A stretch of DNA of 44,793 bases from a virus (lineage: Duplodnaviria; Heunggongvirae; Uroviricota; Caudoviricetes), in the IMG/VR virus record IMGVR_UViG_643348551_000008, positions 1-44,793 of that record, one strand, 5' to 3'. The notes under the pieces were generated by a model. That model did no database searches. It was not told the DNA's origin and saw only the letters and a program-made list of their open reading frames with translations. The translations under genes were made by a program, and so were the position numbers. Within the stretch, counting starts at the first letter, position 1. Each line of letters opens with the position of its first letter. Below are positions 27,179-31,959 of the stretch, one piece after another.

Positions 27179-27253
<75 letters not shown>

Positions 27254-27256
27254 ATA

Positions 27257-27332
27257 TGGTGCCGACTACCGGAATCGAACTGGCGACCCGGTGATTACAA
27301 GTCAGTTGCTTTGTCTGCTAAGTTAAATCGGC
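27257..27332 (-). tRNA. tRNA-like gene, possibly tRNA-Thr (UGU) with imperfect stems (may be degenerate)
   Basis: Acceptor GCCGATT/AGTCGGC plus CCA and T-loop TTCGATT present; anticodon loop CTTGTAA but only 3 bp pair in the anticodon stem and the D-arm is atypical. Confidence 0.4.
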
Positions 27333-27513: not shown

Positions 27514-28560
27514 TTAACTATTTTCTTTTATTTCGCTTACAGTCTGGTTAAATCTCTCTTCTTCCTGCTCCACACCTATTGCATGCCGTCCCAGCGATAA
27601 TGCTGCTTTTATTGTTGATCCCGACCCCATAAAAAAATCAGCAACCAAATCTCCCGGATGGCTGCTGGCGGTAATTATCTGACGCAACATATCCGCCGGT
27701 TTCTCACAGGGATGTTTGCCGGGGTAATACTGCACAGGCTTGTGCGTCCAGACATCCGTATACGGAACAGCTGCCGATACGGAAAAATAACGCCGCAGGG
27801 ATTTGTACTCTTCCAGCAGGCTGGCATATTGCCGGTTCAGTTCACTGTATGTGCTGACCAGCTGGTGGTGCGGCTTTTCCAGTTCACCGCGTTGATGTTT
27901 TTCTGCTGCAACACGCGCAAACAACGCCTGTAATTTCAGATAATCGCCTTCGTTCGGCAACTGCCACTGACTGATACCAAACCAGTGCGAAGCCATGTTT
28001 TTCTTTCCGGTGACTTCCGCTATCTGTTTTGACGTTATACCCAGTGATTCACGCGCATCACGAAAGTAAGAAATCAGCGGAGCCATCACGTGCTGCTTAA
28101 GCTCGCGCCCCTTTGCCGCATAGCCGTCATTTTTTGGCTGATATGGCCCCTGATAATGTTCAGCAAACAGAATGCGTTCTGTTGCCGGAAAATACGCCCG
28201 CAGGCTTTCCTTGTTGCACCCGTTCCAGCGCCCGGACGGCTTCGCCCAGATAATATGGTTCAGCACATTAAAGCGCTCACGCATCATGATTTCGATATCA
28301 GATGCCAGGCGATGACCACAGAACAGGTAGAGACTTCCGGCAGGTTTCAGTACCCGCCAGAATTGCGCCAGACACTGATCCAGCCATTTCAGGTAATCAT
28401 CGTCGCCCTTCCACTGGTTATCCCAGCCCTCGGGCTTCACTTTAAAGTATGGCGGGTCTGTGACTATCAGATCGACAGAGTTTTCCGGTAAGGTCTGGAT
28501 AAATTCCAGGCAATCAGCGTTGATTAACTCACAACTGGATATTTTTACAGTATTAGCCAT
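27514..28560 (-). CDS. DNA methyltransferase (N6-adenine/N4-cytosine class, orphan)
   Basis: DPPY motif near the N-terminus and FxGSGST near the C-terminus; no adjacent restriction endonuclease. Confidence 0.8.
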   Translation of the reverse strand: MANTVKISSCELINADCLEFIQTLPENSVDLIVTDPPYFKVKPEGWDNQWKGDDDYLKWLDQCLAQFWRVLKPAGSLYLFCGHRLASDIEIMMRERFNVLNHIIWAKPSGRWNGCNKESLRAYFPATERILFAEHYQGPYQPKNDGYAAKGRELKQHVMAPLISYFRDARESLGITSKQIAEVTGKKNMASHWFGISQWQLPNEGDYLKLQALFARVAAEKHQRGELEKPHHQLVSTYSELNRQYASLLEEYKSLRRYFSVSAAVPYTDVWTHKPVQYYPGKHPCEKPADMLRQIITASSHPGDLVADFFMGSGSTIKAALSLGRHAIGVEQEEERFNQTVSEIKENS

Positions 28561-28700: not shown

Positions 28701-28724
28701 TAAAAAGCCTTCACTGCGGAAGGC
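28701..28724 (-). terminator. Intrinsic terminator at the 3' end of the 65-aa gene
   Basis: Stem gccttc/gaaggc (28707-28724) followed on the minus strand by TTTTTA. Confidence 0.55.
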
Positions 28725-28908
28725 GTCTGTAACAACCGAACTGATAATCTGCCAGACCCGCCATAACAAGCTGAGTCAGTATTAACTGGCAGCGTTCGCG
28801 TGAAAGGTAAGTATTCTGCGCAATTTCCCCGACGGTCGCTGGTTCGGTGACACTTAATTCATTAAATACCACTCTGGCGGTTTCGGTCATATCCTGCTGT
28901 TTTAGCAT
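28711..28908 (-). CDS. Small putative DNA-binding protein (winged-helix-like), 65 aa
   Basis: ORF bracketed by terminator-like hairpins; pattern EPATVGEIAQNTYLSRERCQLIL resembles an HTH. Confidence 0.4.
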   Translation of the reverse strand: MLKQQDMTETARVVFNELSVTEPATVGEIAQNTYLSRERCQLILTQLVMAGLADYQFGCYRRLPQ

Positions 28909-29030
28909 GTCTTTTTCCTTTTCTGGTTAACGTGACATACCAATAACTCTTGTCTAAAAAGCCAGCAAGCTGAAAGACCGGTATTCGCAACCACCAGCGC
29001 ATTTAACGTCCTGTACCGCTTTTCGGGCAC

Positions 29031-29056
29031 AAAAAAAACCGCTCATCGGCGGGTTT
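29031..29056 (-). terminator. Weak intrinsic terminator (possible tR'-like)
   Basis: Short GC stem ccgc/gcgg followed by a U8 run on the minus strand. Confidence 0.4.
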
Positions 29057-29165
29057 AAGCTGTGTGACGTAGTAATCACTCTTAACATCATATTTAAATT
29101 TTTACGTACGTAAACCTGTACGTATAACTTTATATTATAAAAATGCAACAACTATAATATTTTAG

Positions 29166-30360
<1,195 letters not shown>

Positions 30361-30361
30361 T

Positions 30362-30514
30362 TAGATATTTTAGATATTTTAGATATTTTAGATATTTTAG
30401 ATATTTTAGATATTTTAGATATTTTAGATATTTTAGATATTTTAGATGTTTTAGATGTTTTAGATGTTTTAGATGTTTTAGATGTTTTAGATATTTTAGA
30501 TATTTTAGATAAAT
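30362..30514. repeat. 9-bp tandem repeat array (about 16.5 units: 9x TAGATATTT, 5x TAGATGTTT, 2x TAGATATTT)
   Basis: Directly visible; abuts the IS5 right end and lies about 175 bp upstream of the porin start codon. Confidence 0.95.
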
Positions 30515-30689
30515 ACTGCATTGAAAATTATCACCAATATTTAACACCACACATAAATGTGATATTGATCACACTATAAACCCTTAAATAAACCCCATAT
30601 CTTGAAATAACAGTACCGATTAGATGTATATTTAAGTTGCAGCGACATCATTTTTTAATAATAGTTCCCAAAAGGACTAAGGATTCATA

Positions 30690-31772
30690 ATGAAAAAATT
30701 AACAGTGGCAATCTCTGCTGTAGCAGCATCAGTATTGATAGCTATGTCCGCTCAGGCAGCTGAGATTTATAACAAAGACAGCAATAAATTAGATCTGTAC
30801 GGAAAAGTTAATGCCGGGCACTACTTCTCCTCTAACGATAAACACGATGGTGACAAAACTTATGCTCGTCTGGGATTCAAAGGTGAAACCCAAATCAACG
30901 ATAAACTGACTGGTTTCGGTCAGTGGGAATATGAATTCAAAGGCAACCATGCTGAATCTCAAGGTTCCTCCGCAGACAAAACCCGTCTTGCGTTTGCTGG
31001 TCTGAAATTCGGCGACTACGGCTCCATCGATTATGGTCGTAACTACGGTGTAGCATACGATATCGGTGCATGGACTAACGTTCTGCCAGAATTCGGTGGC
31101 GATACCTGGACTCAAACAGATGTATTCATGACTGATCGCACCACAGGTGTTGCAACTTATCGTAACAACGACTTATTTGGTCTGGTTGATGGTCTGAACT
31201 TTGCTGCTCAGTATCAGGGTAAAAATGACCGCACTGACGTAACTCAAGCTAATGGTGATGGTTTCGGTTTCTCCACTACTTATGAGTATGAAGGATTCGG
31301 CGTAGGTGCAACCTATGCTAAATCTGACCGCACTAATAATCAGGTTATCTACGGTAACAACAGCCTGAATGCATCTGGTCAAAATGCTGAAGTATGGGCA
31401 GCTGGTCTGAAATATGATGCGAGCAACATCTATCTGGCTACTACCTATTCTGAAACCCAAAACATGACTGTTTTTGGTAAAAACCATATTGCCAACAAAG
31501 CACAAAACTTCGAAGTAGTTGCACAATATCAGTTCGACTTCGGTCTGCGTCCGTCCGTTGCTTACCTGCAATCTAAAGGTAAAGACCTTGGCGTTTTTGG
31601 TGACCAAGATTTAGTCAAATATGTTGATGTAGGTGCAACCTATTATTTCAACAAAAATATGTCAACTTTTGTTGATTACAAAATCAACCTACTTGACAAA
31701 AATGATTTCACCAGAAATCTTGATATAAACGCCGACGATATTGTTGCTGTCGGTATGGTTTACCAGTTCTAA
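30690..31772 (+). CDS. nmpC: Outer membrane general porin, NmpC/Lc (OmpC/OmpF) family
   Basis: 360-aa ORF with signal peptide [23 protein letters not shown] and C-terminal ...VGMVYQF; resembles recalled DLP12 NmpC; located next to Q. Confidence 0.8.
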
Positions 31773-31910
31773 TTTTTTTATTAACAAGATATGTTGTGAG
31801 GAGATATTTATCTTCCACAACATGTAGGTGATGCCCTCACATCACTGCATTCAGAAAGACATTTTTGTCTTTTCTTTTTAACCTTCTGTTATTTATTACC
31901 CTAAACTCTT

Positions 31911-31935
31911 GGGGCGTTTTTGCGCCCCTTTTTTA
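31911..31935 (+). terminator. Intrinsic terminator downstream of the porin gene
   Basis: Stem ggggcg/cgcccc followed by TTTTTTATT on the plus strand. Confidence 0.65.
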
Positions 31936-31959
31936 TTCAATTTTGCCAGCAAACGTTAG

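Follow-up and report, generated by a model that had tools for sequence, protein, structure and literature searches.

A length-variable 9-bp tandem repeat upstream of a prophage porin gene of Escherichia coli SE11 carries an IS5 insertion

A 9-bp tandem array lies upstream of a porin gene in a prophage of E. coli SE11, and its copy number varies from 2 to 16 full units among loci with the same flanks, including loci whose flanks are identical over 2.4 kb. We consider it probable that the array is a slippage-driven minisatellite, presumably close to neutral for porin expression, and that it also forms a dense landing site for IS5. The array belongs with the known variable-number tandem repeats (VNTRs), and it does not occupy the position of a promoter contingency switch. 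The DNA analyzed, here called the window, is the whole stretch of 44,793 nucleotides. It is the E. coli SE11 locus, and a 7-kb locus of AP009240.1 is an exact substring of it.

Results

Location and structure of the array

The array is situated in a lambdoid, phiP27-like prophage, between the antiterminator Q and the late genes. From right to left the order is Q, the porin gene on the opposite strand, the array together with IS5, a module comprising a tR'-like terminator, a 65-aa ORF, a methyltransferase and tRNA genes, and then the lysis genes (Table 1). One of the tRNA genes was called by ARAGORN as tRNA-Gly(tcc) and the second was identified by Rfam only; the homologous locus of strain UMNF18 is annotated with tRNA-Gly and tRNA-Thr.

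Table 1 Features of the prophage porin locus, in window coordinates.
Feature	Position	Strand	Basis or remark
Two tRNA genes, late region, downstream of the methyltransferase	27179-27253, 27260-27332	-	ARAGORN, Rfam
Phage DNA methyltransferase	27514..28560	-	PF01555
65-aa ORF (WP_000917767 family), first gene of the conserved late-side module	28711..28908	-	
tR'-like intrinsic terminator	29030..29055	-	stem CCCGCCGATGAGCGG, then T8; compensatory stem changes
Leftward promoter-like site, TTTACG-16-TATGAT	29087..29114	-	overlaps palindrome
Perfect 14-bp palindrome TTTACGTACGTAAA	29101-29114		
Rightward promoter-like site, TTTATA-18-TATAAT	29129-29158		lies to the left of the array and is directed into it
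Original left edge of the repeat, ATATT + TTAG (ATATTTTAG)	29157..29165	.	cut off from the rest by IS5
Target site duplication, copy 1, TTAG	29162-29165	.	left of IS5; preceding sequence ends in CTATAATATT
IS5 (ISKpn26-like), 1195 bp	29166..30360	-	terminal inverted repeats GGAAGGTGCGAATAAG / CTTGTTCGCACCTTCC; RefSeq annotation of homologues
IS5 transposase, 326 aa	29312-30292	-	NCBIfam NF033581, IS5-family transposase, 367 bits
77-aa gene of the SE11 annotation (MFAPS-LDILDILD...)	30346-30579	+	runs across the array
Target site duplication, copy 2, TTAG (Py-T-A-Pu)	30361..30364	.	first four bases of the array
9-bp VNTR, 16 full units plus partial unit TTAGATAaa	30361..30513	.	TRF and unit-by-unit reading
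CRP-like site TGTGATATTGATCACA	30558..30573	.	near-consensus; center about -73.5 from the predicted start
Predicted porin promoter, -35 TTGAAA (30602-07), -10 TATATT (30627-32), 19-bp spacer	30602..30639	+	sequence only
Putative porin start G	30639	+	sequence and analogy with K-12 nmpC
OmpC-family general porin gene, 360 aa, prophage-borne	30690..31772	+	NCBIfam NF007841 (OmpC subfamily), 517 bits against a cutoff of 484
Terminator-like hairpin and T-run after the porin gene	31911..31928	+	between the porin stop and the Q stop
Antiterminator Q, 127 aa	31960..32343	-	PF06530

Analysis with TRF placed a repeat of period 9 at 30361-30511 (16.8 copies, 98% matches, score 267); no other repeat in the 44.8-kb window was nearly as strong. 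When the units were read one by one from 30361, nine copies of TTAGATATT were followed by five of TTAGATGTT, hereafter the G-variant, two further copies of TTAGATATT, and the partial unit. These data confirm the 9-bp tandem array with an internal block of five variants that had been described in an earlier note on this DNA, whose register, TAGATATTT at 30362-30514, is the same array shifted by one base. The distance to the porin start, put there at about 175 bp, was measured as 176 bp from the end of the array to the ATG at 30690. The note was also correct in stating that the array is not a CRISPR, since the units are only 9 bp long and abut one another with no spacers between them.

The motif TTAGATRTT has 16 matches in the window, and all 16 of these are inside the array, leaving no other copy in 44.8 kb. 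Dinucleotide-preserving shuffles gave an expectation of 0.29 +/- 0.52 matches, and none of 100 shuffles reached 16; short copies are thus arranged head to tail beyond chance, as in VNTRs and minisatellites. The five adjacent G-variant units record at least one point mutation followed by local amplification in SE11. A search of Rfam with the array found no match. Folded as single-stranded DNA rather than as RNA, the array had no meaningful structure (-0.5 kcal/mol, z = -0.38), which suggests that slippage would proceed by simple misalignment and not by hairpin formation.

Copy number differs between prophages with identical flanks

The earlier note had proposed that the array can vary by slipped-strand mispairing, and comparison across relatives bore this out, the counts being far from identical. 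Independent assemblies with the same flanks were found to carry 2 full units (UMNF18, locus L001; L070), 3 units (L081, L087), 5 units (L066), 6 units (L080, in which unit 1 is the G-variant), 8 units (L062, L086), 9 units (L083), 11 units (L064, and L065, in which unit 9 is TTAGATACT) and 16 units (SE11, with the G-variant five times). Further carriers were recovered through contigs encoding exactly the porin, the Q or the 65-aa protein of the window. The extreme counts, 2 in UMNF18 and 16 in SE11, come from finished genomes, while those from 5 to 11 come from short-read drafts, in which perfect repeats can be miscounted, although arrays of 57-111 bp are still within read length.

The left junction, CTATAATATT, is common to all array carriers, and the right junction is the same in all of them with the exception of a one-base variant, TTAGACAAATACTGCATTG, in L066. 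Variant units differ in position by strain, as seen in SE11, L080 and L065. The locus therefore shows differing copy number between conserved unique flanks, as is characteristic of a VNTR. [quoted passage not shown] Loci L062, L064 and L083 had 0 mismatches over these 2,400 bp, yet carried 8, 11, and 9 units, respectively; similarly, L065 and L066 had 0 mismatches over the same length, yet carried 11 versus 5 units. Identical flanks with differing counts indicate that changes in copy number greatly outpace point substitution, as expected of slipped-strand mispairing, of which unit-number differences between identical flanks are the signature. We infer that the array is a hypermutable VNTR with slippage as the mechanism. 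An apparent progression in steps of three units (2, 5, 8, 11) was dropped once wider sampling yielded loci having 3, 6, and 9.

The array is rare in the collections searched. A locus having both flanks was present in 13 of 5,426 complete E. coli genomes, and in none of the 13 was the array expanded. Only UMNF18 among them has the repeat-type allele, with its two full units, the others having unrelated sequence at this position, so that the array was found in 1 of the 5,426 complete genomes besides SE11. Exact scans for the right junction ATTTTAGATAAATACTGCATTG gave 0 matches in metagenome contigs and 0 in a collection with one genome per species, and in IMG/VR a single match, which was the short UMNF18-type form. 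Scans for four consecutive units returned matches only in unrelated organisms, such as Helicobacter cetorum, Psychromonas, and Paenibacillus. In such unrelated genomes and metagenome contigs TTAGATRTT forms arrays of 4-11 units (H. cetorum L009, 2985-3083; L010, L011, L013 and others), and as these have no flank homology to the prophage locus, the 9-mer has formed arrays independently elsewhere. A full-text literature search with the two-unit 18-mer found no paper containing the sequence. Other alleles of the porin cassette were also checked for upstream tandem repeats, and none comparable was found.

IS5 is inserted in the first unit of the SE11 array

A 1195-bp IS5, missed in the earlier note, directly adjoins the left edge of the array with its right end. 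When IS5 and one TTAG were removed from the SE11 sequence, the result was the exact sequence of the IS-free relatives, in which CTATAATATT runs straight into TTAGATATT without interruption. The insertion site of IS5 was thus the first TTAG of the repeat. The published target rule for IS5 is Py-T-A-Pu with a 4-bp duplication (PMC5493358, PMC11677980), and the element prefers such targets where the surrounding DNA is AT-rich and readily melted by superhelical stress, or SIDD (PMC5493358). Both features are found in SE11: the target is Py-T-A-Pu with a 4-bp direct duplication, and it lies in AT-rich DNA that is easily melted, as judged by nearest-neighbor stability used as a proxy for SIDD.

The physical properties of the array are in keeping with this. 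Its A+T content is 85.6%, and the lowest-stability 60-bp window of the 44.8 kb falls within it (-0.934 versus a mean of -1.443 kcal/mol per step, a qualitative comparison). Py-T-A-Pu (YTAR) sites number 17 in the array, or 111/kb, versus 5.7/kb in the window. The target preference of IS5 would account for this insertion, and one event taken together with the published target rules suggests that the array may act as a hot spot, or at least a landing site, for the element.

Among approximately 12 array-carrying assemblies, an IS within the array was found only in SE11, in addition to L098, which is probably a resequencing of SE11; a search of these assemblies for recurrent independent insertions therefore found none beyond the one event. 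The Logan contig L098 has the left junction of SE11 and joins a fimbrial locus on its other side, probably an assembly path through another copy of IS5. Expansion of the array does not need IS5, because IS-free loci reach 11 units and the IS is present only in SE11; the element was accordingly ruled out as the cause of expansion. Other Py-T-A-Pu targets in prophage porin loci have repeatedly received IS5-like elements. E. coli AF14 has one (L091, 1505-2699) in a TTAA at codon 4 of the porin gene, and others are found near or in Q (L092, L093, L002).

The end of IS5 bearing the ins5A promoter faces the array and the porin gene. In the sequence we saw no sign of porin activation by IS5. A fusion promoter of the fucAO type is unlikely, as the CRP-like site lies about 240 bp from the ins5A start and not at 61.5.

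The array lies upstream of the predicted porin promoter

The predicted porin promoter has an unusual 19-bp spacer between its -35 and -10 hexamers, and the block consisting of TTGAAA, TATATT and the putative start G is kept across divergent porin alleles. The mapped start of nmpC in K-12 is likewise a G, and the nmpC promoter, for which the region from -199 to -1 of the ATG was taken, is activated by Crp and repressed by OmpR, IHF, and MprA (PMC11677980). Between the array and the predicted promoter of the SE11 porin is the CRP-like site, the right half of which is kept in divergent porin alleles; by analogy, this site is consistent with the Crp activation reported for K-12 nmpC (PMC11677980). 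After the porin gene, the hairpin at 31911-31928 is GC-rich and lacks a T-run on the late-sense strand, and it is predicted to terminate the porin transcript.

With these predicted positions, the array extends from about -126 to -278 relative to the porin start, upstream of the CRP-like site. The earlier note had suggested that changes in copy number alter promoter spacing or curvature, and neither idea was upheld. The array is not between the -35 and -10 elements, and thus it cannot act as a classic spacing switch. With regard to curvature, a wedge model predicted an end-to-end to contour ratio of 0.943 for the array, indistinguishable from 0.921 +/- 0.049 for shuffles, and hence no net curvature (a qualitative result). 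The absence of net curvature follows from the 9-bp period being out of helical phase, and in a control calculation the same unit spaced at 10/11 bp became strongly curved in the model (0.05-0.63). Intrinsically curved upstream DNA was therefore rejected as a description of the array, phased A-tracts being absent by the same qualitative model. One 9-bp unit makes a turn of 306.5 degrees, so that each unit rotates the upstream DNA by about 51 degrees.

Signals between the array and the late genes

To the left of the array and IS5, the leftward promoter-like site overlaps a perfect palindrome (Table 1), and it is a candidate promoter for the late genes or for the 65-aa ORF. Comparison with phiP27 and with prophages having other Q types showed that homology stops at the -10 region of this site, phiP27 having different hexamers in the same register. 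The tR'-like terminator, a strong one, which the 65-aa ORF follows, is kept with compensatory changes behind several different types of Q. From these sequence features, the leftward site and the terminator possibly constitute a pR'/tR' arrangement.

The interval from Q to the 65-aa ORF (28909-31959) was seen to be a hot spot for cargo (loci L071-L079, L090, L095-L109). Depending on the prophage, it holds a porin, a GIY-YIG/T5orf172 nuclease, a TfpB-like gene, an AAA_15 protein, GmrSD/HEPN genes or a three-gene cassette.

Discussion

Origin of the array and of the IS5 insertion

The above results are best accounted for by an array that would have grown by slipped-strand mispairing from a seed of 2-3 units, situated in the very AT-rich spacer between the prophage porin promoter and the phage late-gene module. 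Gain and loss of units would far outpace point substitution. As a default in the interpretation of sequence data, the length of the array is most likely near-neutral for porin expression. Any effect on expression would be indirect, either through a longer, easily melted AT tract of the H-NS type or through an altered distance and helical phase, by about 51 degrees per unit, of the porin promoter relative to upstream DNA. Each unit also adds one TTAG, a Py-T-A-Pu target of the type preferred by IS5, in the least stable duplex of the prophage, and in SE11 the element has entered the first of these with a clean 4-bp duplication.

The array resembles the VNTRs and minisatellites employed in MLVA-type strain typing. 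The units are short and arranged head to tail, the flanks are conserved, the count varies by strain, variant units serve as markers, and slippage is the presumed mechanism. The SE11 array is unlike them in being on a mobile prophage cassette and in one allele lineage only.

The IS5 insertion may be compared with those upstream of glpFK, bglGFB, flhDC, and fucAO (PMC5493358, PMC11894529), with which it shares a Py-T-A-Pu target, a 4-bp duplication and easily melted AT-rich DNA, as well as a position upstream of a promoter of the CRP-dependent type, here a predicted one. Unlike those sites, the SE11 array has been seen with a single insertion event. At glpFK, the curved, IHF-binding 3' end of IS5 has been implicated, whereas it is the ins5A-promoter end that faces the SE11 porin. 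In the fucAO fusion promoter, CRP is at -61.5 (PMC11894529), in contrast to the separation of some 240 bp from the ins5A start in SE11.

The porin cassette itself is of the nmpC/Lc/OmpD type known from DLP12 of K-12 and from PA-2. These cassettes likewise have an OmpC-family porin gene between Q and the late genes with the opposite direction of transcription, a CRP-type site upstream, and IS5 insertions recurring at the locus. However, the other cassette alleles, including the DLP12-like one, are without the upstream tandem array, and in K-12 nmpC the IS5 is in the 3' end of the gene rather than upstream.

Alternative roles for the array

Surface porins belong to a class of genes that is often phase-variable in other bacteria. 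Promoter contingency loci such as the TA repeats of Haemophilus hif and the homopolymers of Neisseria porA and opc are located between the -35 and -10 elements, and tracts within a core promoter or a reading frame act as on/off switches of expression. The SE11 array is similar to simple-sequence contingency loci in being a hypermutable repeat beside a surface-protein gene with a count that varies between isolates. It differs in its 9-bp unit and in its location, which is neither between the -35 and -10 elements nor in a reading frame but 126-278 bp upstream of the predicted start, the promoter position being a sequence prediction. The TAAA tract of Neisseria meningitidis nadA and the 7-bp repeats of Haemophilus hmw1A/hmw2A are distal upstream modulators, for which regulator sites or promoters have been mapped and dependence on copy number has been measured. 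The resemblance to these is in position only: the repeats are outside -35/-10, where their number could grade expression but not switch it. Where a distal modulator would be expected to have its regulator sites, the CRP-like site is downstream of the SE11 array, and to the left are the rightward and leftward promoter-like sites and the palindrome, all of them sequence predictions.

It is nevertheless conceivable, though in our judgment unlikely, that the array serves as a tuning or contingency element whose copy number shifts porin expression heritably and reversibly through the architecture of DNA far upstream. The route could be the length of an AT tract bound by H-NS, contacts that RNA polymerase and CRP make upstream, or the distance and phase relative to an operator farther upstream or to the leftward, divergent promoter. 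The hypervariability of the array between near-identical prophages would fit such a role, as would its location in the regulatory intergenic DNA of a gene for a surface-exposed porin, its extreme AT-richness and the rotation of upstream DNA by about 51 degrees with each unit. The array also begins at the upstream edge of the equivalent of the approximately 200-bp K-12 nmpC promoter bound by Crp, OmpR, IHF, and MprA (PMC11677980). On the other hand, the core promoter and the only recognizable CRP-like site both lie downstream of the array, and we identified no binding site to its left that would need phasing. In addition, the repeat is absent from most alleles of the porin cassette and therefore is not required for regulation. 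A bolder version of this idea, in which the array would be a phage-borne rheostat, heritable and reversible, with gain or loss of 9 bp resetting the level of porin and/or its coupling to the divergent leftward, possibly late, promoter, appears more doubtful still.

Transcription from the rightward promoter-like site might run through the array in IS-free strains, and we gave a small probability to the array being a variable 5' leader. The distal promoter at 29129-29158 would start transcription at the first unit, with the array read as (UUAGAUAUU)n and its length modulating mRNA yield in the manner of the Haemophilus hmw1A/hmw2A repeats; in SE11 the insertion of IS5 would have disconnected this promoter. 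The site is a 10/12 match with a perfect TATAAT, the end of which is 7 bp from the point of IS5 insertion and the first unit. Yet promoter-like matches are not enriched in this AT-rich region, with 3 found versus 6.7 +/- 2.5 expected from shuffles, and the hexamers are only partly kept in other alleles. A proximal promoter that is conserved and has a G start exists, and the repeat is without predicted structure, as far as folding of single-stranded DNA indicates.

That the array is a set of iteron- or operator-like binding sites for a phage or host DNA-binding protein is suggested by its sixteen identical or near-identical 9-mers and by a putative partial resemblance of the unit to the AT-rich motifs of nucleoid proteins, but we regard this as highly improbable. 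Iterons and operators are fixed in number, have sites of about 17-22 bp, keep helical phase and adjoin a replication or regulator gene. The present array has 2 to 16 copies in otherwise identical prophages, its 9-bp spacing puts successive sites on different faces of the helix, its motif is nowhere else in the 44.8-kb window, and most cassette alleles lack it.

Finally, a coding repeat was ruled out, even though four of the six frames are open through the array and a 77-aa gene with Leu-Asp-Ile repeats is called in the SE11 record: its start is inside the IS5 end, and so the ORF exists only through the insertion, the IS-free loci have short open stretches through the array with no ATG in the Leu-Asp-Ile frame, the length of a product from this or another open frame would change with each slippage event, and no homologue or family was found. 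The 77-aa gene is almost certainly an artifact of annotation composed of the IS5 end plus the repeat.

Implications

A slippage-driven minisatellite that is probably near-neutral for the porin remains our preferred reading. To our knowledge, E. coli is not noted for repeat-driven contingency loci, and few such loci are known in the species. A length-variable repeat in otherwise identical prophages, beside a surface porin, makes a cheap and well-defined test case for whether slippage can tune prophage cargo. Even if neutral, the repeat is a high-resolution strain marker for this family of prophages. In nature the array also exemplifies how a repeat can multiply IS5 targets in the most easily melted DNA of the element carrying it, and the IS5 literature predicts that such target-rich DNA should attract insertions.

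Were copy number to act as a rheostat after all, it would reset the level of a porin that helps determine phage receptor availability, permeability, and antigenicity. Lysogens of E. coli would then have population heterogeneity of the contingency type, which is otherwise rare in the species, and the IS5 insertion in SE11 would carry this tinkering with regulation one step further.
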